This document shows, in pieces, positions 31,517-52,900 of a DNA stretch of 64,000 bases (positions are counted from its first letter, which is position 1; each line of letters begins with the position of its first letter). Both the position numbers and the translations under genes were made by a program. This stretch comes from a virus. Taxonomy: Duplodnaviria > Caudoviricetes. The DNA is taken from IMG/VR virus record IMGVR_UViG_3300031998_000004; one strand, 5' to 3'. The notes beneath the pieces are model-generated. The model had not been told where the DNA came from, did not search any database, and worked only from the letters and a program-made list of their open reading frames with translations.

Positions 31517-31546
31517 CCTACCATTATAATATCAATATCATTTTTG

Positions 31547-31617
31547 TACCCTCAAGAGGATTTGAACCCCTACAATTTCTTTAGAAGAGAAATGTGCATC
31601 CATTACACCATGAGGGC
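31547..31617 (-). tRNA. tRNA-Arg(TCT)
   Basis: Cloverleaf; TTTCT-CT TCT AA-AGAAA. Confidence 0.9.
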
Positions 31618-31810
31618 GTGATGGGTACTTTTAAGAAACTCTAACTACTAGTGCACCCTCGCTAGAGAAGAACCGGAGACGTACCCTGCCTTTGTCCGAT
31701 TGCACACACCTTTTTTGTTTTGTAGCGGCGGCAGCTGCGACTGTAAAAATAGACTGTGTTCTGTCCTGTTTGAACTATTGTACCGATTTGCAGGTAAGTC
31801 TCAGTCTACT

Positions 31811-31904
31811 TGGTAGCGGCGGCAGGATTCGAACCTACGGGGGACTTATTGACAATGCCAGAGGGTTATGAGCCCTCGCTGTGGACCACTTCAGGTACGC
31901 CGCG
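31811..31904 (-). tRNA. tRNA-Met(CAT), initiator-like, with 22-nt variable region
   Basis: C1 mismatch, GGG/CCC anticodon stem, encoded CCA. Confidence 0.85.
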
Positions 31905-31912
31905 ATGTTTAG

Positions 31913-31987
31913 TAGCGGGAGTGGGATTTGAACCGCACGACCTCAAGGTTATGAGCCTTGCAAGCTACCTGACTGCTCTATCCCGCA
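31913..31987 (-). tRNA. tRNA-Met(CAT), initiator-like
   Basis: 1:72 mismatch; CAAGG-CT CAT AA-CCTTG. Confidence 0.9.
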
Positions 31988-31999
31988 ATTTTCTGGTTG

Positions 32000-32074
32000 T
32001 ACCGATAGGTAGACTCGAACTACCAACGACGGTCTTATGAGAACCGCGCTCTTATCCAGTTGAGCTATATCGGC
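32000..32074 (-). tRNA. tRNA-Met/Ile2(CAT)
   Basis: Cloverleaf, G1:U72 paired, anticodon CAT; elongator Met vs lysidine-Ile not resolved. Confidence 0.88.
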
Positions 32075-33665: not shown

Positions 33666-35306
33666 TTAATAGTCCCAAACATGATAGTCAGTACCACTTA
33701 ATGTCCATCCAGAAACGAGAGCATTGAAGTTAACCACATCACCATCGAATCTAAAGTTGTAGATATACTTATTACTTGCTCCCCAAGATGCTACGTAGTC
33801 AGCATCCTGATCAGCATCCTTACCAGTATTGATTGTTCTAGTGATTTTACGATCGGTAAATACCACATCATCACCACTAGGGTTAGCAATGCAGATATCG
33901 AACACAACAGTGATATTCTGAGGAACCGGCTGGGGGATTACAAGAGAGTTACCAAGTACCACGTGGTCTCCAGTGAAGAGTGTGTCGGTCTGTGCACTTA
34001 CGTAATTGAGAGTAGTGTCTTTCTGTGTACCATACATGGCAGCAGGAGTATCAGTAAGAAGACTTGCAGTAGGAAGACGAAACCATCCATCTACATAAAC
34101 ACCTTCTGAACCGCTTGCGGGCACTGCAGGAACCGCAGCTACACCAGGAACCGCATCGTGATGTTCAATAGTGTGTTGAGGAGCAGCGTTACTATCCCAA
34201 CAGTTAAGACCAACTACTGTATAAGCAGCGCCATTTACAAATGCATCAATAAGAACATAGTCCCAAACATCTGGTTTACCACCACTGTTTGCGGGTTGAA
34301 TGTCATAGCCATTATCCTGAAGATACTTCCATCCATTGAAGAAATGCATAATTTCTCCACCAGTCATCTCAACAGCAAGGTCATACTCGGCTGGGATCGC
34401 CTTGTCTGTTTTTCTGAGTTGTTTGATAACATTGCTAGCCCATACTGTGTTACCCATATGGAGGTCATAGTCACCAGCAGCTCCATTATCAACTGTATAG
34501 TAAGACTTAATCTCTGCAACAAGAGCATCTGGGAGTGGTGCGGCGTTTGTGTAAGCACCCCAAGTATCTCCTTCTTTTACTCTTAATTTAGTTGCTGATG
34601 CAACAGCACTATAGGTCTTCTTAAGGTTTACCCAAGTATCAGTAGTGTCGTCATATGCAGGAACCTCAGGAACTGCAGCAACACCGGGGATAGAATCGCG
34701 ATATTCACCGAAACTGATCTGCTTTACTCGCACCCACTTGATATTAGGATTGATAACCTCACCACGGAACTGAAGCCATGAGAGAGCGTGTCTGAATGTG
34801 AGTTCTACACGTTCGTGCTCTGCACCAACAGCACCATTCTGATGATGATTGTAAGCGGTCTGTGCCCAAAGAACATCATCAAACCCATCGGGATCATCAA
34901 TAAGACTCTGTGTAAGAGCAGGGATATTTAATTTTAATGTATCGTTAACCCACTCAACAGTGTTGTCATACTGTGAGTATGCAGTAAATATAAAGTCGAT
35001 ACCTGTATAGTTATCGGACTTAGGCCAGTAGTAAGGACCACCGACGGCATTACCATCTTTATCATATTCTGCGTTCTTCATAAGATAACCACCGTTCACT
35101 GAAAACTCTCCAGGAACTACATAACCATAAACACCAAAATTGTCCTCCATTGCTGTGGTGTCTACAATAGCTTTAGTAGCAACAGAGGTGCCTGTGTTGA
35201 AGGTAATCTCTGATCTACCGAAGTTTCCGATTGTCATATCTTCCACCTTTGCACATCCGGCAAGGAGAAGCATAGCTGTAAATAAAATTGCAAAAAACTT
35301 TTTCAT
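33666..35306 (-). CDS. Fimbrillin family (type V pilin, Mfa-like) lipoprotein
   Basis: Lipobox LLLAGC, ATKA processing site, YYWP, LTFRHALS, C-terminal KYIYNF..V.GW. Confidence 0.85.
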   Translation of the reverse strand: MKKFFAILFTAMLLLAGCAKVEDMTIGNFGRSEITFNTGTSVATKAIVDTTAMEDNFGVYGYVVPGEFSVNGGYLMKNAEYDKDGNAVGGPYYWPKSDNYTGIDFIFTAYSQYDNTVEWVNDTLKLNIPALTQSLIDDPDGFDDVLWAQTAYNHHQNGAVGAEHERVELTFRHALSWLQFRGEVINPNIKWVRVKQISFGEYRDSIPGVAAVPEVPAYDDTTDTWVNLKKTYSAVASATKLRVKEGDTWGAYTNAAPLPDALVAEIKSYYTVDNGAAGDYDLHMGNTVWASNVIKQLRKTDKAIPAEYDLAVEMTGGEIMHFFNGWKYLQDNGYDIQPANSGGKPDVWDYVLIDAFVNGAAYTVVGLNCWDSNAAPQHTIEHHDAVPGVAAVPAVPASGSEGVYVDGWFRLPTASLLTDTPAAMYGTQKDTTLNYVSAQTDTLFTGDHVVLGNSLVIPQPVPQNITVVFDICIANPSGDDVVFTDRKITRTINTGKDADQDADYVASWGASNKYIYNFRFDGDVVNFNALVSGWTLSGTDYHVWDY

Positions 35307-35336
35307 ACGTAAATTTCTATTCTAATAATTTTTTCA

Positions 35337-36413
35337 TCAAAATACATCATAAGTGTGTTGTTTCCATTCGTTCAAGTCAATCCCGAATGTATTATCTCCT
35401 ACAGGCGTTTCTTTTTTTAATTCGGAGTTAAGAATGATTACTGTTATGACTCCACCTTTAGGATTTTCTTGTAACTGTTTCGTAATGTCTTTTGTACCAG
35501 TGACTTCTCCGTAATTATAAGTATCAACATCTATGTTGGTGTAATAAAGATAGTCAATCTGGGATGTCCAAGAGCTATTAATATCATCAGGCAACAGGTC
35601 CAAAATTGTAACTCGACTAGCAAACACAAGACTATCTGGTGTATGGAACTGCCCTGGTTTAATATCAAAAGTTGATATCTGTTTATTACCTGTCCAGACT
35701 GGGGTGTTTGTGAACATATTCTTTTTTGTTGATATTCCACTCACTGTGAAGTTTACTATGTCTCGAGCCTCAATCAGAGGACTATGATCGTCGTTAACTA
35801 CAATGAACTGAATGACATATATGTATGATACGGGTTCGAGCATTTCATCAATATTATACACATACACGAGTTTTCCATTCTCAATAACCTCTTCAAAATC
35901 TGAGATGTCATTTGAGAGATATATCTCACGTTTATTCATTGCGAACACCTCACCTGGTTGATTCACTGTCTCATACTCATTACTAATAGGATTTCTTGCC
36001 CGTGTGCTCTTTGTAGAAGGAGTTTCCACATAGTATCGCCCACCTTCGTAATAAGTCTCTGTCCAAGGATTATCTTTACTATATATCAACAAGTCATATG
36101 TGTTATTCAATTCAACATCAATGAGTTCCCTCTTTCCTGTCTGTACTCGAGTCTCGGATAAAATCTTTCCCTGATTGAAAATCACAACGTTACATGTTGT
36201 TGGAAGAGTATAAAAGAGTGGTCCATAAAGGTCTTCATCCCAGTTATACTTAAGGGTATCTTGCCATCCTTCCTTCCACATAGCATTGATGTTTGCTTGT
36301 ACCTGTACGTTAATCTTCAATGCAGTGTCTCCTTGGAGGTAGAGAGGTTTGCGCTCACACCCTATGAGTATACTCATTAATAACATTAATCCCAATACAA
36401 CTTTCTTCCACAT
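35337..36413 (-). CDS. DUF5119-like fimbrial accessory lipoprotein
   Basis: Lipobox ILIGC-ERKPL; DIT.QL...GG; FGID...W. Confidence 0.75.
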   Translation of the reverse strand: MWKKVVLGLMLLMSILIGCERKPLYLQGDTALKINVQVQANINAMWKEGWQDTLKYNWDEDLYGPLFYTLPTTCNVVIFNQGKILSETRVQTGKRELIDVELNNTYDLLIYSKDNPWTETYYEGGRYYVETPSTKSTRARNPISNEYETVNQPGEVFAMNKREIYLSNDISDFEEVIENGKLVYVYNIDEMLEPVSYIYVIQFIVVNDDHSPLIEARDIVNFTVSGISTKKNMFTNTPVWTGNKQISTFDIKPGQFHTPDSLVFASRVTILDLLPDDINSSWTSQIDYLYYTNIDVDTYNYGEVTGTKDITKQLQENPKGGVITVIILNSELKKETPVGDNTFGIDLNEWKQHTYDVF

Positions 36414-37624
36414 ATCAAATCAAATGTTAAATTAAATCCAACTTCGGTTGGACCAAAATAGTTCATATTAAATCGTCTTGGAACAAAGTCACTAGCTCGT
36501 AAGTACCAGTTATAATAGTATTTAGTATCCCATGGCTGAGAGGCGTGATAGGCATCAAACCTCGTATTAAACCATCCAATCCGACCATACAACTCAAACT
36601 TCCATCTCGGGTGTTTCTTACATTGGAATACATATCCGTATCCCAATCCACATCCATATACTTCTCCTTGATATCCCAGGTCTTTGTTCCAAGCGCAGAA
36701 GTCATAGATAGCGGTATTTGCATAAACTCCAATCCAATGCCCTGTGTACTTGTTATTAAGATATTTTCGGATACCCGCGATTCCATTCAAGAGTTGATAG
36801 TAGAAGTAACTGTCATAATCCTTATGCCACCAAGGGAACGTATAATCAAACTCAAGACTCAACCCCCACAGGTGTGTGTAGAGTTCTGCTTGGACGTTTG
36901 GTGTGATTGCAAGATCGCTCAAAAGATTCGTTTTAACAGCGAGTATTGGGATAACCTTAAGGTTTGGTCGAATTAGGATTGTATCGCGAAAATAGATAGG
37001 TTTTTGGATGAATATAGTATCGTGTTTGAGCTCGGTTAAGATTATAGTGTCTCTTTCGATTTCTTTCATCACTTCCTTTATCACTACCGTGTCTCTTTCA
37101 ATCTCTTTTATGACTTGTGGATATAAGAAATACACCTTAATATCAATTCTTCTGAGTCGTGGGAAGTACTTTTGATTAAGCTCTTTCCAATAGCCAGACC
37201 GAATAAGATCGTGTTTGACATCGTTGCTTGTAGAGAGAATCTTTAAGATTTTACCCTTCCAAGGTTCATTACTCGCTTCAATCAACTTATACAGCCCATC
37301 ATAGTCTTCCGATATAGTTATCTCGTCATCAAGATTCAATATATCACGAACCGCATCAACACGTCCTTGAGCGAGTGCTCGGTTGCCTGAATAAGTACCT
37401 TCTGGTGAAGCAGTACCTGTGATTTTAATATATTTGATGTCGTCTTGATGTTCTTGGATGAACGGGAGTTGACTATTGACGAACTCTTGATAGTTTTCAT
37501 CCTGGATGAACTCTGTAGTGTTGACTTTGAAGTAAAGTGTTGATGTCACTACGGTATCCCGTTGTTGGCTGTATCCGAGCCAACACATACAAAGTAAGGA
37601 CAATATGAGTAGAAGTCTGCGCAT
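36386..37624 (-). CDS. OmpA-like plus DUF3575 outer-membrane protein (fimbrial anchor/assembly)
   Basis: G.ASPEG...N..LA..R, FPRLRR, AVKTNLL.D, YFGPT. Confidence 0.8.
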   Translation of the reverse strand: MRRLLLILSLLCMCWLGYSQQRDTVVTSTLYFKVNTTEFIQDENYQEFVNSQLPFIQEHQDDIKYIKITGTASPEGTYSGNRALAQGRVDAVRDILNLDDEITISEDYDGLYKLIEASNEPWKGKILKILSTSNDVKHDLIRSGYWKELNQKYFPRLRRIDIKVYFLYPQVIKEIERDTVVIKEVMKEIERDTIILTELKHDTIFIQKPIYFRDTILIRPNLKVIPILAVKTNLLSDLAITPNVQAELYTHLWGLSLEFDYTFPWWHKDYDSYFYYQLLNGIAGIRKYLNNKYTGHWIGVYANTAIYDFCAWNKDLGYQGEVYGCGLGYGYVFQCKKHPRWKFELYGRIGWFNTRFDAYHASQPWDTKYYYNWYLRASDFVPRRFNMNYFGPTEVGFNLTFDLICGRKLYWD

Positions 37625-37638
37625 TTATATAAAATATA

Positions 37639-37665
37639 AGGATTCTTAAATAACTTTAAGAATCC
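37639..37665 (-). terminator. Terminator at end of the 10-tRNA array
   Basis: GGATTCTTAAA..TTTAAGAATCC inverted repeat; U-tract weak. Confidence 0.55.
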
Positions 37666-37669
37666 CGCG

Positions 37670-37741
37670 AGCCCCTGAGAAGAATCGAACTCCCATTTGA
37701 TGATTACGAAACATCCGTACTAGCCGTTATACTACAAGGGC
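37670..37741 (-). tRNA. tRNA-Thr(CGT)
   Basis: Cloverleaf, anticodon CGT. Confidence 0.88.
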
Positions 37742-37744
37742 ATT

Positions 37745-37820
37745 TGGTAGCAGTGGAACGACTCGAACGTTCAACCGACAACTTCAGAGGCTGCTGCTCT
37801 ACCAATTGCGCTACACTGCT
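37745..37820 (-). tRNA. tRNA-Gln(CTG)
   Basis: Cloverleaf, anticodon CTG, encoded CCA; acceptor atypical for Gln (A1:U72, A73). Confidence 0.85.
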
Positions 37821-37825
37821 ATCTG

Positions 37826-37899
37826 AGCAATCAACCGGGATCGAACCGATGTCTTATCCATACCAAGGATATGTTCTCGACCTGCTAAACTATGACTGC
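37826..37899 (-). tRNA. tRNA-Thr(GGT)
   Basis: Cloverleaf, TATCC-TT GGT AT-GGATA. Confidence 0.9.
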
Positions 37900-37904
37900 A
37901 TAAA

Positions 37905-38000
37905 ATAGTTGGAAGAGTGTTTGCTATAGACATTGACGATATGTTCTATATAATTTGTCAAAGAGGCTCTTATCGTATATTCGTCTACTATCCTAACTAT
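37905..38000 (-). ncRNA. Unassigned rod-like structured RNA in tRNA array
   Basis: ATAGTT/AACTAT, AAGAG/CTCTT, TTTG/CAAA, TATAGA/TCTATA nested helices. Confidence 0.45.
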
Positions 38001-38003
38001 TTG

Positions 38004-38074
38004 TACCCGGTAGAAGATTCGAACTCCTATGATCAGATCCGTATTCTGAAATCCTTCCATTGAATGAACCGGGC
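38004..38074 (-). tRNA. tRNA-Arg(ACG)
   Basis: TCAGA-AT ACG GA-TCTGA. Confidence 0.9.
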
Positions 38075-38102
38075 ATTAACCTATTGATTATTAATTACTT
38101 AG

Positions 38103-38177
38103 GGAGAAAGACGGGACTCGAACCCGCATAAACTACATCCACAGTGTAGTGCCTAAACCAATTCGGCCACCTCCTCC
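38103..38177 (-). tRNA. tRNA-His(GTG)
   Basis: G-1:C73, CTACA-CT GTG GA-TGTAG. Confidence 0.9.
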
Positions 38178-38183
38178 ATGTAG

Positions 38184-38257
38184 TCGAGAGACCCAGATTC
38201 GAACTGGGATTGGATCGGTATCAGCGATCTAGCCTTGACCTGTTAGCTGATCTCTCG
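38184..38257 (-). tRNA. tRNA-Ile(GAT)
   Basis: GATCG-CT GAT AC-CGATC. Confidence 0.88.
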
Positions 38258-38263
38258 AATTTG

Positions 38264-38335
38264 CAGGAGTTACAGGACTCGAACCCATATCGTTTGATTT
38301 GGAGTCAAAAATGCTAACCATTACACCAAACTCCT
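38264..38335 (-). tRNA. tRNA-Trp(CCA)
   Basis: TTTGA-CT CCA AA-TCAAA, G73. Confidence 0.92.
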
Positions 38336-38361
38336 GTATAACCTATTGATTATCAATGTAG

Positions 38362-38433
38362 TGCAGGTAACCGGAATCGAACCGACATCTCAGGAGTGGA
38401 AGTCCTATACACTAGCCGTTGTGCTATACCTGC
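38362..38433 (-). tRNA. tRNA-Gly(TCC)
   Basis: TAGGA-CT TCC AC-TCCTG. Confidence 0.9.
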
Positions 38434-38443
38434 AATTTATTCG

Positions 38444-38515
38444 AGCAGCATACTGGTAACGCTCCAGCGTCTCGACATTGGCAATGTCGCATAATTACTT
38501 TTATACGAATGCTGC
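38444..38515 (-). tRNA. tRNA-Gly(GCC), non-canonical D/T loops
   Basis: CGACA-TT GCC AA-TGTCG; T-loop AGCGTTA; D-loop lacks GG. Confidence 0.8.
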
Positions 38516-38520
38516 TTAGG

Positions 38521-38606
38521 AGTCTGGGATAGGACTCGAACCTACGTAAGTCATTGACTATCAACGGTTTTGCAGACCGCCTCCTGACCAACTCGGACAC
38601 CCAGAC
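38521..38606 (-). tRNA. tRNA-Cys(GCA) with 18-nt variable region
   Basis: GCGGT-CT GCA AA-ACCGT, U73, variable region TGATAGTCAATGACTTAC. Confidence 0.88.
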
Positions 38607-38610
38607 ATAA

Positions 38611-38624
38611 TATTTCAAAGATCA
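38611..38624 (-). promoter_or_regulatory. boxA-like antitermination element TGATCTTTGAAATA
   Basis: Resembles rrn boxA (TGCTCTTTAACA / GATCTTTGAAA variants); lies between attenuator and first tRNA. Confidence 0.5.
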
Positions 38625-38659
38625 AAAAAAATCACCCGAACTATCTCAGCTCAAGCGAT
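38624..38659 (-). terminator. Attenuator terminator of tRNA array 1
   Basis: ATCGCTTGAGCT-GAGAT-AGTTCGGGTGAT followed by T7. Confidence 0.8.
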
Positions 38660-38694
38660 CTCGTTTTATATGCGTAAAATTATTTTCTGAGACC

Positions 38695-38772
38695 TTACTT
38701 GAGCATAGTAGTGCGACCACACCAACCTTGATGCTGTCCGCGAATACCGATATGTCCAATGTTTGTTCTCAT
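38695..38772 (-). CDS. Putative attenuator leader peptide 1 (MRTNIGHIGIRGQHQGWCGRTTMLK)
   Basis: 25-codon ORF; 17 of codons 5-22 are read by the downstream array; 3' end complementary to terminator 5' arm. Confidence 0.8.
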   Translation of the reverse strand: MRTNIGHIGIRGQHQGWCGRTTMLK

Positions 38773-38803
38773 GTTATTATAATACAAAATATCTCTTAAA
38801 AAT

Positions 38804-39346
38804 TTAAACCTTCATATACTTTTTTATTATATCTTGTGCTTTTTTAGAGATTGTTCCAGGAATATATTCAAGTCCACTATCCCAACCAGCATCTTCAAGC
38901 TTCTTTATTGATGATCTACCATCACCAATACTTAACCATTTAATATATGGGTCCCAGTTAAAACATATATCAAAGTCGTTTGCATCATCTATGTCAGTAA
39001 GTGAAAATGTATATTGTCTTCCATTGCATATCTCTTGTGCTTCGTGACGCATGTATATTGTCTCGGGGCAGAGAATATAAATATCATAGTTATCAATATC
39101 TTCAACCGCAATATCTTCAACCGCAACTATACAATCGTCTTCATTATATACTACTTCATATTCATCATCAAGGTCTCCAAGAGTCACATTCGACTTATTA
39201 CCAAAGTACTTCTTACGCCTCTTCTGGTAGTACTCTTCACACTTCTTCCAATCGGGTTCATAGATAGTCACACCGTTGATTTTGATAGCAGATTTGATAT
39301 TGTCATTAAAGACTCCTTCGTTTATAAATTCACTTAAACTTTTCAT
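38804..39346 (-). CDS. Hypothetical protein, CTS-like N-terminus (MKSLSEFINEGVFNDNI)
   Basis: ORF track. Confidence 0.75.
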   Translation of the reverse strand: MKSLSEFINEGVFNDNIKSAIKINGVTIYEPDWKKCEEYYQKRRKKYFGNKSNVTLGDLDDEYEVVYNEDDCIVAVEDIAVEDIDNYDIYILCPETIYMRHEAQEICNGRQYTFSLTDIDDANDFDICFNWDPYIKWLSIGDGRSSIKKLEDAGWDSGLEYIPGTISKKAQDIIKKYMKV

Positions 39347-39349
39347 ATC

Positions 39350-39784
39350 TTACCATCTTTTCCATTCATCCCAACCACGTTGAGTAACACCTTTCTGATC
39401 CTGAGGAAGAGCACCGCTTTCGTAGAACTCTTTACTTACATGTACTCTTTTTTCTCCATACTTAACTGTATTTAAATACATCCAATACTTATCATCACCA
39501 ATTCTGTATCCTTTGACTGTTCCAAATCCTGGTAGCATGTCTTGCTCTACATCTAGTCCATCAACCTTTTTACAGTAGTTGATGATTCTAGCATAAAGAT
39601 TTCGTCCATCTTTAACTGTTACCGTCGAAGGATTTATCTCATACCACTCTCTACTACTTCCCTGATAGTCACGGCAAAGAGCAACCCCGTCTCCGAAGAA
39701 CTTCTTAATTACATAAGCAAGTTTCTCGGGAACTATTTTACTTTTGACGTTATCTGTAAAGAGACTTTCTTGTAGTGATTTCAT
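39350..39784 (-). CDS. Hypothetical protein, CTS-like N-terminus (MKSLQESLFTDN)
   Basis: ORF track. Confidence 0.75.
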   Translation of the reverse strand: MKSLQESLFTDNVKSKIVPEKLAYVIKKFFGDGVALCRDYQGSSREWYEINPSTVTVKDGRNLYARIINYCKKVDGLDVEQDMLPGFGTVKGYRIGDDKYWMYLNTVKYGEKRVHVSKEFYESGALPQDQKGVTQRGWDEWKRW

Positions 39785-41064
39785 ACTAAACTTTCTTGTA
39801 AGGATTTTGGTTTCATAGTGTATTTACTATAACCAATGATACGGTTGAGTGGAACGAATCCACCAGTCCACTTCATCATCTTGCCTTTATAACTGAATAC
39901 TATACCTTCGGCACTTCTGAGATTCTCTTCACCAATCTCCCTTAAAACATCTAACCACTTCTGTAAGAATTCGTTATCTTCGAGAGAACCTTCCCTTCTG
40001 ATCTTTTCGGTGGCAACTTTCAAATCACCAAGAAGACTCTTGATGGTTCCATCTTGCCCGTCATTAACAAAACCACTGGTCACTTTAATAACATCAGCAC
40101 CCATACTATAGAAGAAATTTTGAAGTGGTGTGAGTACAGTATTAACTACTTTACTAGATGTCTTATCAAGTTTAACAAAACCATCAAGATTATCCTGATA
40201 TATTGCTTTGAGGTCCTTGAGAGATGCAGCTGTCTTATCTCCAAACACCCATCTCCTACAACAATCCATTGCTGCTTTATGATCCTCGCCTAACCACGGT
40301 TCATATTTCTCAACCCATTTAAAGAAGAGACTATATTTGAGACCTTCTATAGTAACATCTGGAGCACAATCGCATTGTTTTAAGAACTTCTGCCACTCAC
40401 CCAACCATTTCTTTTCGAGTTTTGCAGTTTCCTCACTATACTTAATGATAACAGGAGGAGTGATCTTCGCATTGTCGATTCCCTCACAAGCCTTTTCCAA
40501 CACATCTAGTCCTTTCTTGGTTACTTCTGTATTCTTCCATTCACTATCACTTTCTTGTTTTTCGTATATCCATATATTATGAAAGTCTACTTGATCAGAA
40601 GGATAGGGAATAGTATTTGTAGTTCCTGCAAGGATACATTCGCAGTTAACAACAAGTCTCTTAAGGGGCGATGGATTAAACCACTCTGGTCCGATCTTCC
40701 TAAACACAGCTTCAATGATCTTACCACCACGCGTGTAGTTATCAAGAGCATGGGGATTCTCCTTCCATTGTTCTGCAAAATCACTTAATGTCATTCCACC
40801 TTTCTCACTATTGAGATTGGTTTTATTGCGAATGAATACGACATCCCCTTTAGGATTCATACTTGCTTGCATACCAAATCCATCCATCTTCTCTGTCATA
40901 CCTTCCATCTTGCCCCCGAACATGGTACGGATAAGTTCTTCGATATCATATCCAGTAAACTCATCCACATCATATGGATGGAGCATATGTCCACTTGCTC
41001 CACCTTCAAGAACTGGCTCATTAATAGATAGTCTTTCTGTAAAATATTGTGAAAAGTGTTTCAT
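39781..41064 (-). CDS. DUF6267-like protein with ligase/nucleotidyltransferase-like motifs
   Basis: EGGA.GHM.HP.D, TEKMDG (KxDG), EGIV, K.TG.F.P.N.I. Confidence 0.6.
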   Translation of the reverse strand: MKHFSQYFTERLSINEPVLEGGASGHMLHPYDVDEFTGYDIEELIRTMFGGKMEGMTEKMDGFGMQASMNPKGDVVFIRNKTNLNSEKGGMTLSDFAEQWKENPHALDNYTRGGKIIEAVFRKIGPEWFNPSPLKRLVVNCECILAGTTNTIPYPSDQVDFHNIWIYEKQESDSEWKNTEVTKKGLDVLEKACEGIDNAKITPPVIIKYSEETAKLEKKWLGEWQKFLKQCDCAPDVTIEGLKYSLFFKWVEKYEPWLGEDHKAAMDCCRRWVFGDKTAASLKDLKAIYQDNLDGFVKLDKTSSKVVNTVLTPLQNFFYSMGADVIKVTSGFVNDGQDGTIKSLLGDLKVATEKIRREGSLEDNEFLQKWLDVLREIGEENLRSAEGIVFSYKGKMMKWTGGFVPLNRIIGYSKYTMKPKSLQESLV

Positions 41065-42029
41065 TACTTAAGATCTTTAAATTTAGCCCCATTAAGGAGA
41101 ATATTGAGTGCGGATCCTGTATTTGCTGGAGCCGCGTCATCAGGTCCAGTTATCCCAGCACGATCAGTCTGTGGCATAACAGGACGTGGTGCTGCCCATG
41201 AAGGAGGAGTCTGTTTACGAGAAACAAATATGTCTCTATTCTTCTCTACAAGTTTGCCAATATCTTCTGCAGATTTGACATCTACACCAGCATCATTCAA
41301 ATACTTAATTGCATCTGCAAGTATATTATCGTGTCCTTTGAAAAGTTCTACAACGCGCTTTGCAAGCTTATCACCTTTAAGAGCGGAACCAAAGATATTG
41401 TTTTGAGGAGCAGCCTTACCAACAGGAAGTTTTCCTCCGTCCCCTTTATTAGGTTTACTATCATCACCAATAATAGCTGCAATCATTCCCTGAACTATTT
41501 TAAGAAAATCCTGCACAGGCTCAGGGCCTTCAACCACCATACAACTAACATGAGCATCTGGATTCATAAGTCCGACCTGACTCCATCTGTGATGACCATC
41601 AATAATCCAGTTTTTACCTTTATCCTTATATACAAGCACAGGTACTGCAAAGTTTGCTCCAAAAGCACTACCATCAAACATCTGTGGAATACATCTTACT
41701 CCCCAGTCCTTCGTCGCCCACTTTGCCGAGTTCTCAATATCGATTTCTGATTGTGTAGGATAGAGGTCTGCACAAGAGATACTCTGGCCAGGAGAGGCTG
41801 TATATTTCTTTCCTTCCTCATTCTGTCCGTCAAAGAGGTCTTTAAGAGCAGCCATCCAAAGTTTAGTATTATCTCCACTCTGTGTCTTTCCAAGAATCTT
41901 ATTTAGTTCATCAACAAAAACCTTCAAGTTGCCTTTCTTACTAAGGTCCTGAAGCATTTTATCACTGAGTTCTTTAACGTCTTCTGATTTTTCAAGCTTT
42001 TCAATTATATATTGTACAAGATGTTTCAT
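41064..42029 (-). CDS. ParB/Srx-like domain protein, CTS-like N-terminus
   Basis: LYPTQSEID, IIDGHHRW, PR..MPQ. Confidence 0.75.
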   Translation of the reverse strand: MKHLVQYIIEKLEKSEDVKELSDKMLQDLSKKGNLKVFVDELNKILGKTQSGDNTKLWMAALKDLFDGQNEEGKKYTASPGQSISCADLYPTQSEIDIENSAKWATKDWGVRCIPQMFDGSAFGANFAVPVLVYKDKGKNWIIDGHHRWSQVGLMNPDAHVSCMVVEGPEPVQDFLKIVQGMIAAIIGDDSKPNKGDGGKLPVGKAAPQNNIFGSALKGDKLAKRVVELFKGHDNILADAIKYLNDAGVDVKSAEDIGKLVEKNRDIFVSRKQTPPSWAAPRPVMPQTDRAGITGPDDAAPANTGSALNILLNGAKFKDLK

Positions 42030-42047
42030 GGATAAATAATCATCAAA

Positions 42048-42074
42048 AAAGGACCTCCCTTAAAGAGATCCTTT
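42048..42074 (-). terminator. Terminator at end of Ser/Leu tRNA unit
   Basis: AAAGGATCTC..GAGGTCCTTTTTT on minus strand. Confidence 0.7.
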
Positions 42075-42076
42075 CG

Positions 42077-42154
42077 TGGTAGCCCGGGTGGGATTCGAAC
42101 CCACATCTTTTTCGCTTTTGAGGCGAACACGTCTCCCAGTTGCGTCACCGGGCC
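42077..42154 (-). tRNA. tRNA-Leu(CAA) with short variable region
   Basis: TTCGC-CT CAA AA-GCGAA, A73, encoded CCA. Confidence 0.88.
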
Positions 42155-42160
42155 ATTATA

Positions 42161-42664
42161 CTATTTCTTCACAACCCAGTCAGCAAGAGTAGTGATAAGA
42201 GGACCGAAGGTCTTATAACGAACCTCGAATCCATATGACTCAAGCCATCCCTTTGAAGAAGCATAAGCTACATTGGAGCCAGCGTCTTCACGTGGGTTGA
42301 TATCAATGTCTATGTAACGGACAGGAACACCGCTTTCACGAATCCTCATGGCGACATCAAGTGATGCCTGCGTCTCAGCAGTCATTCTATCGAAGATTTC
42401 GGTCTTCTTGTAGCGTCTGGTCTTCCAACGACTGAACACACAGTGAGCGCCGTGCCCGTGTCCATCCCCATCACCTTTGTCATACATAGCGACTATAGTT
42501 GAGAATACAGTGTATGGTCCTTTGTTCTGTGAGTCGGTTCCAACCATCACATCAATATTCTGGTGGGTACTGTAGTACTCTTTCACATACTGCTCAATGT
42601 TGTCTAGCTTCTCTCCAGTAAACTTCTTAAATGAGAAAGCTCCATTTATCTTCTCTTGTTCCAT
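42161..42664 (-). CDS. RNase H-like YkuK/DUF458 family protein
   Basis: VGTDSQ, R...E...S, IDIDIN, AD. Confidence 0.8.
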   Translation of the reverse strand: MEQEKINGAFSFKKFTGEKLDNIEQYVKEYYSTHQNIDVMVGTDSQNKGPYTVFSTIVAMYDKGDGDGHGHGAHCVFSRWKTRRYKKTEIFDRMTAETQASLDVAMRIRESGVPVRYIDIDINPREDAGSNVAYASSKGWLESYGFEVRYKTFGPLITTLADWVVKK

Positions 42665-42687
42665 GACTATATTTATTTAATCTTTTG

Positions 42688-42776
42688 CGGAGAGCACTGG
42701 AGTCGAACCAGATCCGGGTTTTAACCGAACGAACCGCCTTCCAAACGGACGCCCTCACCGTCGGGCTTTACTCTCC
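42688..42776 (-). tRNA. tRNA-Ser(GGA)
   Basis: Long variable arm, G73, anticodon GGA. Confidence 0.88.
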
Positions 42777-42785
42777 ATTATAATG

Positions 42786-42874
42786 CGGAAGAAGGAGGAG
42801 TCGAACCCCAAGCCTTGTTTAAGGGCTCAATCCGCTTTCGAGACGGTTTCGGTCACCGTTCCGATTCTTCTTCC
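42786..42874 (-). tRNA. tRNA-Ser(CGA)
   Basis: Long variable arm, G73, anticodon CGA. Confidence 0.88.
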
Positions 42875-42882
42875 AAACCGTG

Positions 42883-42966
42883 CGGAGGGAAGAGGAGTCG
42901 AACCCCAGCCCAAAAGGACCAATCCGCTTTCAAGACGGTTCCCATCTCCGTCAGGGTTTGCCCTCC
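42883..42966 (-). tRNA. tRNA-Ser(TGA)
   Basis: Long variable arm, G73, anticodon TGA. Confidence 0.88.
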
Positions 42967-42975
42967 ACAGTGTTG

Positions 42976-43066
42976 CGGTGGGAGTGGGGCTCGAACCCAC
43001 GCGCCGGGTTTTAACCGACCTAACGGTTTAGCAAACCGTCCCCTTCACCAACTTGGGTATCCCACC
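42976..43066 (-). tRNA. tRNA-Ser(GCT)
   Basis: Long variable arm, G73, anticodon GCT. Confidence 0.92.
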
Positions 43067-43073
43067 GGGTACT

Positions 43074-43409
43074 TTATATCTCTTTATTCTGTAACATCCT
43101 CAGAGCTTCACGAGTACCAGGACATTTGTCATTGACATAGTCTTCATCGAATGCCCCGTTCTTGTCCCAACAAGCTTCTACGATTGCAATGTTGGAAACA
43201 ATCACACCATCGATATTTTTACTCAGACCTTTGATCGCGGGTGTGAGATCATCGATGTTGGCCGGTTTCTCTCGCCCGACTAGCCAGACTTCATTGTGTC
43301 TGGTTACAACCTGACCCCATGTGACCTTGAAGATGTTTTTAAGGAACTCTCCTACCTGTGGCGTCTTCTTACCACGTTTTGAAATGATAATGCTGTAAAC
43401 GTTATACAT
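43074..43409 (-). CDS. Hypothetical protein within Ser/Leu tRNA unit
   Basis: ORF track, A-rich upstream region. Confidence 0.7.
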   Translation of the reverse strand: MYNVYSIIISKRGKKTPQVGEFLKNIFKVTWGQVVTRHNEVWLVGREKPANIDDLTPAIKGLSKNIDGVIVSNIAIVEACWDKNGAFDEDYVNDKCPGTREALRMLQNKEI

Positions 43410-43449
43410 ACTTAATGTTTTGTTTTTTGTTTATTGAGTTATATATAAC

Positions 43450-43478
43450 AAAAAAGAGCTGCATCTTTTGTGCAACTC
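43450..43478 (-). terminator. Attenuator terminator of Ser/Leu tRNA unit
   Basis: GAGTTGCA-CAAAAGA-TGCAGCTC followed by T6. Confidence 0.8.
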
Positions 43479-43511
43479 CGAAAAAAATCACTCGTATACT
43501 AAATTGCACAA

Positions 43512-43577
43512 CTAACCGATAGTCCTATCGAGAGAACTACTCAATGACAATTCAATATTCGCATATGTTCTTTTCAT
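43512..43577 (-). CDS. Putative attenuator leader peptide 2 (MKRTYANIELSLSSSLDRTIG)
   Basis: Codons 10-15 TTG TCA TTG AGT AGT TCT match downstream Leu(CAA)/Ser tRNAs; TTGTGCAATTT after the stop pairs with terminator 5' arm. Confidence 0.75.
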   Translation of the reverse strand: MKRTYANIELSLSSSLDRTIG

Positions 43578-43581
43578 ATCC

Positions 43582-43657
43582 TGGAGCAGCACGCGAGATT
43601 CGAACTCGTACCTTAACCTTGGGAAGGTCATATGCTAACCACTAACACTAGTGCTGC
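43582..43657 (-). tRNA. tRNA-Gly(CCC)
   Basis: TGACC-TT CCC AA-GGTTA, U73, encoded CCA. Confidence 0.9.
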
Positions 43658-43689
43658 ATTTATGTAACTTATTGATTATCAATCAAATG

Positions 43690-44115
43690 CGGAAGGTAAG
43701 AGATTCGAACTCCTGGGCCGCTCACGCGACCAACGGTTTTCCTTACACACATTCCTTTCGGATCGTGGTCTGGACTCTATCTTAACCATATTGAAATCTT
43801 GCAAGATACCTTTAGCAGTGTTCCAATACACTATATTAATTCGGACTGGATTTCTTTTTAACCGAACTAAAGATAATTTCAACTTAGGTTCCTCCTGTAT
43901 AGTCTCTACACACTGTCTAACTTATCGGTCTCACTACGTCAAGCTGGGAATTACTCCAACTCCGGACTTAAAAGTTTTAACATTGGCTCGGTATTACCAT
44001 CAGCATTACCTGTTAAGGTTCTACCGAATTAGGGAGGTTCTACTTCTTTTCTTTCAAAAAGAGCACTCGAATTAAAAATCAAGACCGCCGCTTTAGACCA
44101 CTCAGCCAACCTTCC
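43690..44115 (-). tRNA. tRNA-Ser(TGA) interrupted by group I intron
   Basis: Exons 44115-44081 and 43741-43690 reconstitute GCGGT-CT TGA AA-ACCGT, long variable arm, G73. Confidence 0.88.
43742..44080 (-). mobile_element. Group I self-splicing intron (339 nt, no ORF) inserted after anticodon U34
   Basis: P AATTCGGTAGAAC, Q AATACCGAGC, R GTAGAGACTA, S AAGATAGAGTCC; P1 U.G pair at 5' splice site; terminal G. Confidence 0.88.
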
Positions 44116-44134
44116 AATATTTATATTAAAAATA

Positions 44135-44662
44135 CTAATAACCCTTCAATTCTTTAAGTTTCTGTAATTCCTTTTTTGGTAACTCCCGTAGAGTAGCTCT
44201 CCAAATATCTGTTTCTACTGCATCATCAAGTTGTAATCCAAATATTCCACCCGCGGTTTCCGGAAAGAGATGATTGCATATAGTTTGATAAATACTCGAC
44301 TGACCACCAAAGTTATAATACCAGCATCCCGACCATCCTTGGTGTTTATACCGTTCGATGTCTAATCCCATTATCTCTGCGAACGCATCTCGAATCTCAA
44401 TTGATCTTGTATGATTCATCCAACGAAGATAATCCGGATCTCTCTTGATGCGCTTCTCTATAGAAGTCCCTCTTAACACCATCCGCACCCAATTCATAAT
44501 CCTCAAGATGCACTTATTGTGGTCGCTCTCCGCAGCAATATAGTTTTTATACTCATGATCATCCGACTTTTGTATCTCTCGTCGAATCTCTCGTTGTCTC
44601 TCGGACAAGAGTTTGATCAGTCTGTTAAGTTCAATTACTTTACTTTTTAAGAATGGCGTCAT
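44135..44662 (-). CDS. Hypothetical protein, paralog of 45992-46486
   Basis: ILRIMNWVRMVLRGTSIE vs ILKIIQWVRYLLKGDSIE; start revised to MTPFLK. Confidence 0.7.
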   Translation of the reverse strand: MTPFLKSKVIELNRLIKLLSERQREIRREIQKSDDHEYKNYIAAESDHNKCILRIMNWVRMVLRGTSIEKRIKRDPDYLRWMNHTRSIEIRDAFAEIMGLDIERYKHQGWSGCWYYNFGGQSSIYQTICNHLFPETAGGIFGLQLDDAVETDIWRATLRELPKKELQKLKELKGY

Positions 44663-46931: not shown

Positions 46932-49900
46932 TTATGCTATTGCTGAAATTATTGATGCGTAAGAATTCCAGTTTGATGCAGTCTGATAATCTATTACACT
47001 TCCTGATGGAACATAGATATTTTGCACAACAGTGGTTCCTGGGAGAGTATACGGATATATTGTCGGTGGAGTGGTTGGGAGACTGGTGATGGTCGTTAGG
47101 TGAGAGCAACCATTAAATGCATTACTTCCAATGCTAGTAACAGAACTACCAATTGTAACTGATATTAACCCTGTACAGTCACCAAACGCGGAGTTGCCAA
47201 TAGTTGTGACGGAATTGCCAATTATAATTGTTGTTAATCCAGTACATTTATAAAACACACTATTATTAATTGTTGTAACAGTATTTGGAATATTGATAGA
47301 ATTAAGCCACGTTTGTTCATAAAACGCATATGTTCCAATTATATTAACACCTTCTCCTAAAATTACACGTTCTATTGAAGAACATTGATAAAACACAGCA
47401 TTACTACTATCTATACGGAAACAATTATTTGGTATATCACAGCATATTGTCACCTCAACCAATCCGGTACAAGAGTAGAACGCCCCCGAACTAATTGATG
47501 TAATAGATGATGGAAGAGTAATTGAATTTAATCCGGAGCAATTTTGAAAAGCGTATTGTCTGATTGTTGTGACTGAATTTGGAATATTGATTGATGTCAA
47601 CCCAGTACATCCTTCAAATGCATAAGAATCAATTGATGTAACTGTATTCGGAATAACTGAGTTTTTACACCCAAAATAAAGAATATTAGTTGATGTTCCA
47701 ATAATACAATCATGTCCCCCATTAGAGCTACCATCATTATATACAGTATTACTAGAATCAACCGTTATACTTGATAAAGAAGTGCACCCAGCAAACGCTT
47801 CATACATAATACTAGTACAAGCAATTGGAATATTAATTGAAGTTAATCCTGTACAATTTTGGAATGCGTTTGATCCAATTGATGTAATAGATGATGGGAG
47901 AGTGATTGAAGTTAATCCAGTACACCCATAAAAAGCCCCATTTCCAATATTTAAAACTCCTTGGGGAATGACTGAATTTTTACACCCAATATATAAATAA
48001 TTATTCGATTTCCTAATAATACAATTACTACCACCAACATTTCTACCATCATAATATGTGGAGTTACCATAATCAACTGTTATGCTTGACACCGAATAAC
48101 ATCCATAAAATGAGTTAGACTGCAGTGATGTAACCGAAGATGGAATATTGATTGATGCTAAATTCGAACAGAAATAAAATGCAGAATAATCAATTGTAGT
48201 AACAGTATTAGGAATATTGATTGAAGTCAATCCTGTACATTCATCAAATGCATAATTATTGATTCTTACAACCCCTTGTGGAATAACTGAATTTTTACAT
48301 CCACAATAAAGAATATTATTCGATGTCCCAATAATACAATCATGTCCATCAGCAGCACTACCATCATTAAATGTTGGATTGCTAGGATCAACTGTTATAC
48401 TTGCTAATAATGGACAATTCTTAAACACTGAAGTTTCAATTGTTGTAACAGAACTACCTATAGTTATCGATGTTAACCCGGAGCAATTTTGAAAAGCGTA
48501 TTGTCTGATTGTTGTGACGGAATTTGGAATAACAATTGTATCTATCCAATCGATTCCATCAAACACATTTGACCCAATATCGACTATTCCTTCACCCAAA
48601 GTAATGCTTTCAATATTTTCACACCCATTAAATGCTGAATATGATTTATCAAAATCAAAACAATGAGATGGAATATTACAATACATTGTAACATCTGTTA
48701 ATCCTGTACAATTTCTGAATACTCCCCCTCCCATTGATGTAACAGATGAAGGAAGAGTGATTGATATTAATCCCGTACAACCCTCAAACGCACCAGAAAC
48801 AATTGTTGTAACGGATGACGGAATATTGATTGATACCAATCCAGTACAGTTTTGAAATGCCCTATTATTAATTGTTGTAACGGATGATGGAATATTGATT
48901 GATGTCAATCCAGTACAATTCTGGAACGTATAATTATTAATTGTTGTAACGGATGATGGAATATTGATTGATGTCAATCCAGTACATCCATAAAATGCCG
49001 AACTACCAATCGATGTAACTGATGATGGGAGAGTGATCGATGTTATATTTGGACAATTAGAAAATGCACTATTACCAATAGCTGTAACGGAATTTCCCAT
49101 TGTAACAGATGTTAATCCAGTACATCCATCGAATACATCCTGACCAATTGTTATAACTGAATTTGGGATAATAATGGATGTCAACCATTGTTGAACATTA
49201 AACGCTCGTGATCCAATATTAATAACTCCTTCCCCCAAAGTAACGTTCCTGATATTTGGACAATTAAAAAAACAACTGTATGTTTGTGATATATTAAAAC
49301 AATTGTCGGGTACATCACAATACATTATAACATCTGTTAATCCCGTACAACCCTCAAACGCTTGATTAGCAATCGTAGTAACAGTGCTGGGGATAGTTAT
49401 AGAATCCAACCAATCCAGCCAATTATTGTAACCATAAAAAGCTCGTTGTCCGATCGATGTTACACCTTCTCCTAAAGTAATACTTCTTATATTTGCACAA
49501 TTATAAAAGCGCGCGCTGTCTGTTCTTGAAAAACAATAGGATGGAACATCACAATACATAGTTACACTAGTTAATCCAGTACAATTCTGAAAAGCCTGCG
49601 CTTCTAGTGTTATGACTGATGATGGAATGGTGATTGATGTTATTCCCACACTAGTGAACACATAACTCTTAATTGTTGTAACTGATGATGGGATATTAAT
49701 TGAAGATAATTTCGAACAATTATAAAATGCATTATATTCAATAGTCTGAATATTATTTGGAATAATGACTGATTCTAATTTTGTGCACCCGTAGAAACAT
49801 CCTTTAGGTATAGTTCTCAATCCAGTAAAATGTCTAAATTCATCAAAATTGGTGCAGTTGTCTCTAAATGCATTATCATATGAGAATATACTATAATTCT

Positions 49901-52900
49901 GTGTAGCTACGATATCAGAATCCAACACCTGTTCAGCTTCTTCTATAAGCATTTTATCATAACTTGCACAAAGACCTTTACTATGGAGATTATTATAAAC
50001 TACATCCATAGCCCATGGGTTAACAGCACGTGAGATAGCAATAGTATCGTCTTGATAACCAAAGGTCTTTGTTGGGGGGTTAGATTGATTAGTAACATAA
50101 GAATCATCCACAACCTTTCTCAATACAAGAACAACTGAACCTGATACGTAACCTGCAGCGGGTTCTTGTAATAAAGCAACTGTACAAGATTCATTATCAT
50201 AAGTCACTATACTTGCATACTGTGCAATATCTCCGGTCAGAGACCAAGCAGCATACATATTACCAGTAATACCTTCAGTACTATAAACAACACTATATAC
50301 GTTTTGTTCTTCAAGAGTTATCTGGCCAGGACCATCAATGGAAATCTGTGAAGATGAAGGATATTTACGTTTCTGTACTTCAACCTCTAGTCTACCAGAA
50401 ATAGTACCACCACCAGTTCGATGATAGGTACATACTATCTCGATAGTCTGAGTGGCTCCACCAGTTTCAGATGATGTATAAATACCAGTGTCTGATCCGA
50501 TTTGATCGTCATGCCTTAATCCACTTGTGGCTATTCTATATGTATAATATCCATCCTGATCTTCGATACCCACAGCAACACCGGTATATTGAATAGAACC
50601 ACTACCTTCAAGTACTGTAGTAGGACCTGTGATATAAATAGCGGGTGGAGCAACGATATAGAATGCTGCGGAGGGGTCAAATACATTAGGACCAAAGACA
50701 TTAATGAAGAAATCCACATCTTCTTGAGAACGGATACTCTCAACGGATGCGTGTCCCAGGAGAGTTACTTTACCAGTTTTCTCTGGATCTGCCGCGAGAA
50801 TAAATTCACCAATAGAATGAAGATCATCTATATCTATATTCTCCCATACAATATTATCCATATATACCGAACAATCAGCATCCGGTGTGGTCTTATTATC
50901 TAACCAATTAAGGAAGAAAGTAGGATCATTTGTGAGATTAGGACAGTTAGTTATATCGATTGTGTGAATATTTGCCGCATTATTCTGTACAGTTACTGTA
51001 TTGAGTGAGAAAAAGTTATCAAGAACCAATGACTGAATTAATCCTGGCAACATAAGGGTTGAAAGTGGTGCCGCATGCGGAAGATCAATACTCGCAAGGT
51101 TGGTGCAGTTTCTCACATCAACTGTTTTTAAATAATTATTCTCACTGAGATCCACTCTACCAATACCAGTATATCCAACCATCTGGAAATCCTCAAGATA
51201 CTTGAAGTTAGCTAATCCCTCAAGTCTTGTCATACCAGTATTCACCTGGGAGCTGAGAGTACCGAGTACGAGAGTAGTGAGATTAGAGTCAAATGCTGTA
51301 GTGTTTACTCTTCCAAAATTAATTTCATCAATCTGTTGACTAATTTTTGAAAGATCTAACTCTTTAAAATATACAGCATTATATACCTTAATGGTCGTAC
51401 CAATATAGTATCTTTCTGTCATTGTGAAGTCGATAGGTACATCTTCTTGCCCTTCAACTCCAAGAACCATTGGTCTCTCCAATCCATAACCAAAGATCTG
51501 TCCATTAACCGCAGGAATCACAGTGATAATATCATTTGGAGTAGGATCACCACCAAATGGTTTAATTTCGACACGATTACCAAGATAAGCGTCGGTACCA
51601 TTGATTGCATCATAGTTTGCAAACCTATGACTTAACCACCACTGCCTATGACTCTTACGAGGGCCTTGAAGTTTTGCGAGTTGGGTTTTATCAGAGATAT
51701 TTATATACTTATATTTATAATCTTCATTGTGTGTTCTTTCTGCCCATGATGCTGATTGTTTGATATTAAACATATCAATAACATTAGCATAGCTCATTCC
51801 AGCGTTATAGATAGCCCCATCCATCTTTCTCACTATCTCCATAAACTCATCATCAGACTCGAGGTTATTCCACAACACACTATCGTGTCCAGCATAACAA
51901 TAAGCCGCTGGATTATCAGGATCCTTACTTTGACGGTCAATATTATATCCGAATTTCAAAGCGCCATCATTACGAACACCATTAATAGTATCATTATCAT
52001 AATTGATATAATACCAATGAAGTCCATCTTCTGTGGTAAACATAGCGTTCTTAACGGTCTGGTCGACTGCACCAAAACGCATAAGGTAGACATAGTAAGC
52101 GGCTACTTTATAAACATCAAGATAATTCCACTTTTCTGATTTAAACTTATTCCAAAGAGTGTCATTATCTTTAACCATTTTACCATCTTGTACTTTAGAT
52201 GCCCCCATGGTACTATTAATCCAAGTAGCGACTCTCTTCAAAGCGCTGTTGGGTCCTTCCGCGCGCTCCGCCTCGGATGGCTTGCCACTATCATCAGGAT
52301 AACGAGCTTCAAACGAATACCTCCACCCATCATGATCGGTGCTTGTCCAGTGGGATACGTCGGTAAATAAGTTACATGGGTAATCGCCGTTCACCACTTC
52401 CCAACACTCCATATGACTATTGTCAAACCCAGGAATTGACTTAAATCCAAATACAGATTCCGTACTCTTATCATTATTCCAGTTATACTTACCTAGGAAT
52501 ATAAGAGGATCACCTTCATGCTCGTGATAGAAAAGAGTGATAGGGAAACCATCCACAGTTGTTCTTACATCATATTCATAATCTTCCTGCTCCGCACAGA
52601 ATTGTGCCATGGTCTTACCAGGAGCAATAGTCTCCGCACCGCTTCCAACAAATGTTGATTTAAGATAGAATCTATCATCAACATCGTTTACGTTCAAACG
52701 AGCATTCTTCATATAGTTATTCCACATCCTAGCAACGCCCGTATTATGTGTTGATGATGATTCTGCATAGTCTGCCTTCAAACACCACGTCTTAACAGGT
52801 TGAGCACCGTCTTTAAATGAATATAAACGATCGTCACCGGTCAACTCATTTCCTTCCCAGTCATACATCTGTGTGGTATAACGAGGTTGAGTTTCATCTT

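Follow-up and report, generated by a model that had tools for sequence, protein, structure and literature searches.

Transcription attenuation by a translated leader is established for the amino-acid operons of E. coli and can be multivalent there: the ilvGMEDA leader responds to Ile, Leu and Val and thrL to Thr and Ile, and trpL, hisL and leuL belong with them. The pheM attenuator of the E. coli pheST synthetase operon extends this control to the translation machinery, as its charged-tRNA-sensing leader governs a component that restores that same charged tRNA. Here we describe candidate attenuators of this kind in front of tRNA genes of a virus (Duplodnaviria; Caudoviricetes; IMG/VR record IMGVR_UViG_3300031998_000004). 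Two of them, cassettes 1 and 2, lie in the 64,000-nucleotide (nt) stretch of DNA analysed here (the window), which is part of the 239,809-base record (37% GC); a third, cassette 3, lies elsewhere in the genome. As in the amino-acid operons, a short open reading frame (ORF) at the 5' end carries control codons tied to the downstream genes, several amino acids are covered, an intrinsic terminator competes with a mutually exclusive antiterminator, and the stop codon adjoins the antiterminator. Unlike those systems, the phage cassettes control tRNA genes rather than enzymes, a leader covers up to 8-13 amino acids, mostly with one to five codons each and no long runs, several cassettes divide the genetic code between them, and the product itself decodes the leader. 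The pheM system differs in sensing one amino acid, making a protein product and being chromosomal. T-box riboswitches share a terminator/antiterminator switch that responds to tRNA charging, but bind the tRNA directly without translation; no T-box match was found in Rfam at E up to 0.1-0.5. The cassettes likewise have no match to the Rfam leader families (trpL, hisL, ilvL, pheM), and since the controlled genes are tRNAs they are not members of these.

Leader ORF 1 (38695..38772; all cassettes and tRNA blocks discussed are on the minus strand) starts with ATG, has 25 codons and carries an A at -3. Ten tRNA genes follow directly behind its terminator (block 1, 37669..38606): Cys-GCA, Gly-GCC, Gly-TCC, Trp-CCA, Ile-GAT, His-GTG, Arg-ACG, Thr-GGT, Gln-CTG and Thr-CGT, with Gly-GCC (38444-38515) called by Rfam only. 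A first-pass annotation had proposed that the codons of this leader fit its own block and that Ser is absent, and both points are borne out. By standard wobble, block-1 tRNAs read 17 of the 24 codons after the start, compared to a fraction of 0.228 in phage coding sequence (P 7.6e-7), which places leader 1 at rank 1 among 2,617 ATG ORFs of 15-45 codons genome-wide. In codons 5-22 the match is 17/18, with CAA the sole unmatched codon and no Ser. Nine of the ten tRNAs are represented; the missing one reads ACG. Antiterminator 1 (38689..38704) spans the stop codon, from -10 to +5 relative to the stop codon end, and is complementary to the 5' arm of intrinsic terminator 1 (pairing -15.8 kcal/mol; shuffle P 0.002-0.008). 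The terminator (38624..38660; hairpin 38660-38631 plus an 8-T tract; about -15 kcal/mol) begins 34 nt after the leader and lies ~18 nt before tRNA-Cys.

Leader ORF 2 (43512..43577) has 21 codons. Codons 10-15 encode the run Leu, Ser, Leu, Ser, Ser, Ser and are all read by Ser-GCT, Ser-TGA, Ser-GGA or Leu-CAA of block 2; the sole block-2 tRNA without a codon reads TCG. No other locus in the genome has six consecutive block-2 codons. The fit of this leader to four Ser tRNAs plus Leu(CAA), also proposed in the first-pass annotation, is thus real for the run, as is the absence of Cys, Trp, His and Gln, but overall only 6 of 20 codons match, all of them in the run (P 0.003 versus the codon usage of coding sequence), and leader 2 ranks 112th among the 2,617 small ORFs. 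Antiterminator 2 (43501..43511) sits directly after the stop codon, at +2 to +12 from its end, and pairs with the 5' arm of terminator 2 (43450..43479; about -11 kcal/mol, with a T tract) at -10.5 kcal/mol (shuffle P 0.008-0.02). Behind the terminator lie block 2a (42687..43066), with Ser-GCT, Ser-TGA (42884-42966, found by Rfam and by eye), Ser-CGA and Ser-GGA, and the last gene of block 2, tRNA-Leu(CAA) (42077..42154), followed by a terminator near 42073-42045. The ATG of leader 2 is 4 nt behind tRNA-Gly(CCC) (43582..43657), itself behind a tRNA-Ser(UGA) with a group I intron in the anticodon (43689..44115; RF00028, E 1.3e-5, below the gathering score). Both tRNA genes are upstream of leader 2, which does not gate tRNA-Ser(UGA), and cassette 2 thus lies within a longer transcript. 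Therefore, of the claim that each tRNA unit opens with a tiny ORF, a complementary segment and a terminator, the two cassettes were recovered where proposed, but leader 2 does not open its unit.

Cassette 3 (genome G000 46170-46010; L002:12171-12010), outside the window, precedes a 10-kb tRNA array. Its leader ORF (genome 46170-46105) has 21 codons; every one of the 20 residues is an amino acid of that array, and strict matching holds for 16 of the 20 codons. Codon 2 is one miss; the other three are Pro, Val and Ala codons with C or U in third position, which a modified U34 may read. Antiterminator 3 (-11.7 kcal/mol) lies at +5 to +20 from the stop codon end; shuffle P values for the three cassettes span 0.002-0.03.

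The three blocks have no anticodon in common and, together with a few ungated tRNAs, cover 53 of the 61 sense codons. Leader codons are matched by their own block in 39/64 cases and by other blocks in 21/128 (Fisher 7e-10); block-2 codons number 0 in leaders 1 and 3, as do block-1 codons in leader 3. At the amino-acid level the matching is strong. For synonymous choice given the amino acid, 12 of 20 informative codons match the leader's own block where 8.7 are expected (P 0.09), or 12/17 (P 0.018) with codons 2-3 dropped post hoc, which is suggestive of sensing of single tRNA species. In blocks 1 and 3 the distance from the U tract to the first tRNA is only ~15-20 nt, so these blocks look fully dependent on read-through.

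Upstream complementarity is weak at the ordinary terminators of this genome. Among 70 strong terminators, those of the blocks rank 1 (terminator 1, the strongest), 4 and 8 (~0.001 hypergeometric, with a cut-off chosen post hoc). Other high-ranking terminators (genome 49671, 165090, 4071 and 17162) have no fitting leader. A 20-codon ORF at 44757-44695 was also rejected as an attenuator, as it runs into its own terminator and its upstream complementarity is only -1.9. We modelled the switch by masking RNA as far as 12 nt past the ribosomal A site and folding only the RNA present when the 5' arm of the terminator emerges. For cassette 1, the arm is predicted to be sequestered (0.7-0.8) with the A site at codons 2-20 and released (0.2-0.4) from codon 21. 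The 5' half of leader 2 can pair with its antiterminator, and this 1:2 hairpin is predicted for cassette 2 (z -3.35); the corresponding protector hairpin is a weak prediction in cassette 1. In the sister phage described below, the arm of cassette 2 is free without a ribosome in the model.

The sister phage (L029; 81% protein identity) retains both window cassettes. Its leader 1 (L029:12289-12366) has the same length and frame, with three amino-acid changes in codons 5-20 that all stay within the block's codon set, and one G-U pair of antiterminator 1 is A-U. Sister block 1 also has Gln-TTG and Thr-TGT, which would read CAA and ACA, codons unmatched in the window. The counterpart of leader 2 (L029:6347-6430), again behind tRNA-Gly(CCC), has 27 codons; AGT and TTG occur three times each and TCG once, TCA is absent, and Ser-TGA is missing from sister block 2. 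Terminator 2 has a completely different sequence there, yet 7-16 nt past the stop codon the RNA is perfectly complementary to the new 5' arm over 10 bp. The first-pass annotation had noted that the only unrepresented tRNA reads an NCG codon; this holds for both window leaders (ACG and TCG), but the TCG in sister leader 2 rules out NCG avoidance as a rule. In a second relative (G013, L030), the homologue of cassette 3 lacks the final AGG codon and no Arg-CCT is called in the array, while blocks 1 and 2 are absent except for Leu-CAA. The codon/tRNA co-changes in the sister and in G013 are single events and carry no statistic.

The first-pass annotation had suggested inspecting arrays of related large phages for leaders, terminators and codon/anticodon agreement, and own-block matching was indeed found in four other phages and in Lak-A1. 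Large-phage arrays were reached through an RNase H-like gene that also lies in block 2, and these arrays are laid out in the same way. Own- versus cross-block matching in G012, G014, G009 and G005 gave P values of 3e-6, 2e-11, 3e-10 and 1e-4, with a different partition into blocks, and an exact permutation over 8 cassettes of three lineages gave P 2.5e-5, the minimum possible. One leader of G009 has three consecutive Arg codons before an almost Arg-only block. In phages with a single array, leaders contain 17-20 amino-acid types; that of G004 has all 20 in 41 residues, and the one amino acid missing from another is Thr, whose tRNA gene precedes the leader. Conservation among the phages extends to block matching but not to the peptide sequences. 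Because the 14 cassettes were picked after the candidates had been seen, we wrote a geometry-only rule that is blind to codons. It recovers leaders 1 and 2, and own-block matching still exceeds cross-block matching (P 4e-6). Applied to Prevotella phage Lak-A1 (MK250015.1), previously unseen, it picked a leader in which 21 of 41 residues match a His/Pro/Arg/Gly/Cys/Met block (background 0.135; P 1e-8); 15/41 codons match (P 4e-7), and the antiterminator has a P of 0.008.

We consider it very probable that the cassettes are ribosome-coupled transcription attenuators of phage tRNA blocks. Confidence is greatest for cassette 1; cassette 2 is likely to act in the same way, possibly alongside a bypass promoter. 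The proposed arrangement of ORF, antiterminator and terminator is upheld by the within-genome controls, the compensatory change in the sister and the independent phages. From the ORFs, pairings, terminators, leader-to-block matching and conservation, which are present in the sequence, we infer leader translation, the switch, its kinetics and a physiological trigger as follows. A ribosome would translate the leader behind RNA polymerase. On reaching the last codons or the stop, it would cover the antiterminator, the terminator hairpin would form, and transcription would stop before the tRNAs. A stall at a leader codon short of charged tRNA would instead let the antiterminator pair with the emerging 5' arm, and the block would be transcribed. 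The new tRNAs would then relieve the stall and, since they decode the leader, feedback on decoding capacity would be direct and negative. As a leader contains only one to a few codons for most tRNAs, it would behave as an OR gate that requires a marked stall. Supplying tRNA would remedy a shortage of the tRNA itself but not one of its amino acid, and so few codons would respond only to a deep shortage, so depletion of the pool or nuclease attack would fit better than fine metabolic tuning.

A number of observations weigh against the attenuator reading, in addition to the late choice of the 14 cassettes. The codon-blind rule picks a different frame for cassette 3 and misses some cassettes. With the 12-nt footprint, release in cassette 2 at its final codons is only partial, and a ribosome at the stop codon fails to switch cassette 3. 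Equilibrium folding favours the terminator in most cassettes, and the proposed switch must therefore be kinetic. Thr codons 21-22 of leader 1 fall outside the modelled sensing window and are gone in the sister despite its three Thr tRNAs. Leader 2 has a G at -3, starts only 4 nt behind a tRNA, and aligns with the counterpart in the sister in no more than a few patches. Further close homologues were sought with patterns for leader 1 and tRNA-Gly-CCC and by tblastn with a 111-amino-acid (aa) ORF of unit 2, and yielded only the one sister or unrelated matches. Neither the Met/Met/Met/Arg-TCT cluster nor the Ser-UGA and Gly-CCC genes show such a leader. Finally, at 43442..43451 (minus strand), an AT motif with enrichment upstream of the phage's ordinary genes overlaps the T tract of terminator 2, as at ordinary gene junctions.

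This last observation bears on cassette 2. One could hold that, unlike cassette 1, cassette 2 is no attenuator: terminator 2 would only end the transcript of Ser-UGA and Gly-CCC, a separate promoter would serve block 2, and leader 2 would be a chance or vestigial ORF. A hairpin, T tract, AT motif and gene in that order are what an ordinary junction of this phage looks like, and the rank and start context of leader 2 are in keeping with it. We nevertheless regard this explanation as unlikely, as it leaves unexplained the genome's only six-codon block-2 run, the sister ORF at the same place with its Ser and Leu codons (no TCA where Ser-TGA is missing) and its new antiterminator for a new terminator, and because ordinary terminators are weakly complementary upstream. 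A second, ungated promoter behind terminator 2 is possible, and both it and the attenuator may be real. A similar AT motif occurs 40-55 nt behind the leader terminators of several relatives, and no sigma-70 consensus was found in support of the leader promoters. Given the promoter-like motif, some basal or late transcription may escape the switch, which argues against the original idea that the tRNAs are transcribed solely upon depletion.

Two further explanations concern all of the cassettes. If they were general sensors of translation speed or coupling, as the antibiotic-responsive leaders of whiB7 and vmlR are, any slowing would give read-through and codon identity would matter little. The weak synonymous matching agrees with this, as does the model, in which terminator 1 has its arm sequestered even without a ribosome (0.85), so that an untranslated leader may give read-through. 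Such a sensor does not predict leaders that track the amino-acid set of their own block in five differently partitioned genomes, nor the G009 leader with an Arg triplet in front of an Arg-only block, and we find it improbable. It is more improbable still that the small ORFs are functional peptides or chance occurrences in front of constitutive, leaky terminators of upstream operons. The protein operon upstream runs without a terminator to leader 1, so terminator 1 ends that operon too, and sister leader 2 resembles the widespread short Bacteroidota peptides starting Met-Lys-Lys-x-Tyr and may have been co-opted. However, the leaders belong to no Pfam or NCBIfam family (one 15-bit match fell below the cut-off), the peptides vary among phages while block matching persists, and P values of about 1e-6 to 1e-10 stand against chance.

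Attenuation by the leaders can thus be separated from the question of what it senses. The idea of a multi-input sensor of cleaved or uncharged tRNAs gains from the leader-to-block matching, which for synonymous codons is only suggestive. A leader has no means to distinguish cleavage of a tRNA from failure to charge it or from slower translation overall, and cleavage-specific sensing is a hypothetical further step. It is conceivable, at somewhat less than even confidence, that the cassettes are ribosome-read sensors that sample nearly the whole genetic code and serve as an inducible counter-defence, detecting the loss of a tRNA species, for example to host anticodon nucleases, and inducing the replacing block by direct negative feedback. 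Control of the Anabaena trn operon, a reserve tRNA array tied to translational stress and in that respect similar, reportedly involves a protein repressor. The paper on this inducible tRNA L-array makes no mention of attenuation or a leader in its text (PMC8421152). Phage tRNAs rescue infection from PARIS (PMC11464382) and counter the retron Eco7 and PrrC defences, where rescue depends on expression level and a strong promoter; that study describes no leader or attenuator (PMC11555353). A benefit of extra phage tRNA is likely to be shared with these cases; the present analysis tied no defence system or host to this phage. The first-pass annotation knew of no attenuators on phage tRNA operons, and we likewise found no description of leader-peptide attenuation of tRNA genes, in a search that left most subscription journals outside; the nearest case is the cyanobacterial array (PMC8421152). 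What appears to be new is therefore the use of leader-peptide attenuation for tRNA genes, while the sequence features themselves are those of multivalent amino-acid attenuators.

Several neighbouring features bear on how the blocks may be expressed. Just before leader 1 lies an AT-rich, putatively promoter-like element (38776..38787, minus strand) that is conserved in the sister. No terminator separates leader 1 from the upstream 180-aa gene (ending at 38804), so upstream read-through may also feed the leader. A boxA-like 9-mer (38613..38621, minus strand) directly follows terminator 1 and may be a Nus antitermination signal that protects the untranslated tRNA array. The 9-mer also occurs near 37964 inside block 1 and behind 6 of 19 leader terminators in relatives, compared to ~0.02 expected per 90-nt window. 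The spacer at 37898-38004 folds no better than shuffles, and a hairpin (37639..37666, minus strand) closes block 1. In unit 2, the 111-aa ORF (43074..43409, minus strand), of unknown family and also found in the sister, lies between terminator 2 and the Ser tRNAs. The RNase H-like protein (PF04308; 167 aa; 42161..42664, minus strand) precedes Leu(CAA), and its presence within tRNA arrays of unrelated phages (L013, L014, L017, L019 and L020) hints at a tRNA-related role. A shorter group I intron occupies the same place in tRNA-Ser(UGA) of the sister, and tRNA-Lys(UUU) of block 3 (genome 39832-40443) bears a group I intron as well.

The phage is a giant phage of the cattle gut, with exact-match contigs in a bovine gut run, ~40 credible tRNA genes in the record and two sigma-70-like genes. 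A Bacteroidota host is suggested by a DUF3575/OmpA gene, by A-rich start contexts without a Shine-Dalgarno sequence and by tRNA similarity to Prevotella Lak phages. The analysis covered assembled contigs of two RNA runs. In one of them, from the bovine gut (X1), exact-match contigs cover leader 1, block 1 and the 111-aa ORF, and also protein genes, at a depth of 1-7; they reveal no ends or strand and are possibly DNA, so they are silent on expression and termination. A deep signal at 43724-44325 in the RNA data comes from group I introns of other organisms.

Elsewhere in the window, minus-strand genes at 46932-55052 and 33666-37624 comprise one for a 2,706-aa protein, in which numerous leucine-rich, BspA-like repeats can be made out by eye, and a DUF3575/OmpA and lipoprotein cluster of Bacteroidota type. 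A 427-aa protein between the two tRNA blocks (39781-41064, minus strand) has a weak Pfam match to RNA ligase (E 6.5e-4, below the cut-off) and is a possible RNA repair enzyme. Three CAU tRNAs and Arg-TCT (31546-32074, minus strand) have no leader/terminator cassette and are apparently ungated. On the minus strand of the genome (G000), an atypical tRNA-like gene (40780-40701) has a UAU anticodon, a reduced D arm, a long variable arm and a weak tmRNA match in Rfam; it resembles allo-tRNAs. Leu-AAG (44591-44506), which recurs in relatives, and a tRNA with AAT (37782-37711) have A34 anticodons, which are unusual in bacteria; leader 3 uses CTC twice. In block 3, at 41470-37690, four copies of a paired short motif surround tRNA-like elements. 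The spacers there are long and structured, and a hairpin with a 9-T tract but no leader ORF lies just upstream of tRNA-Leu(TAG) (37363-37305). The related jumbo phages L035, L039 and L041 carry CTA-anticodon tRNAs, possible amber suppressors.

Codon bias, refilling of a degraded pool and counter-defence are competing answers to the question why the genomes of large phages contain dozens of tRNA genes. A sensor before each block would imply that the tRNA genes answer a shortage in decoding. The leaders would also give a rule for the boundaries of tRNA operons and for the decoding that each is intended to supply, and the cassettes may serve as compact, codon-programmable reporters of tRNA damage.

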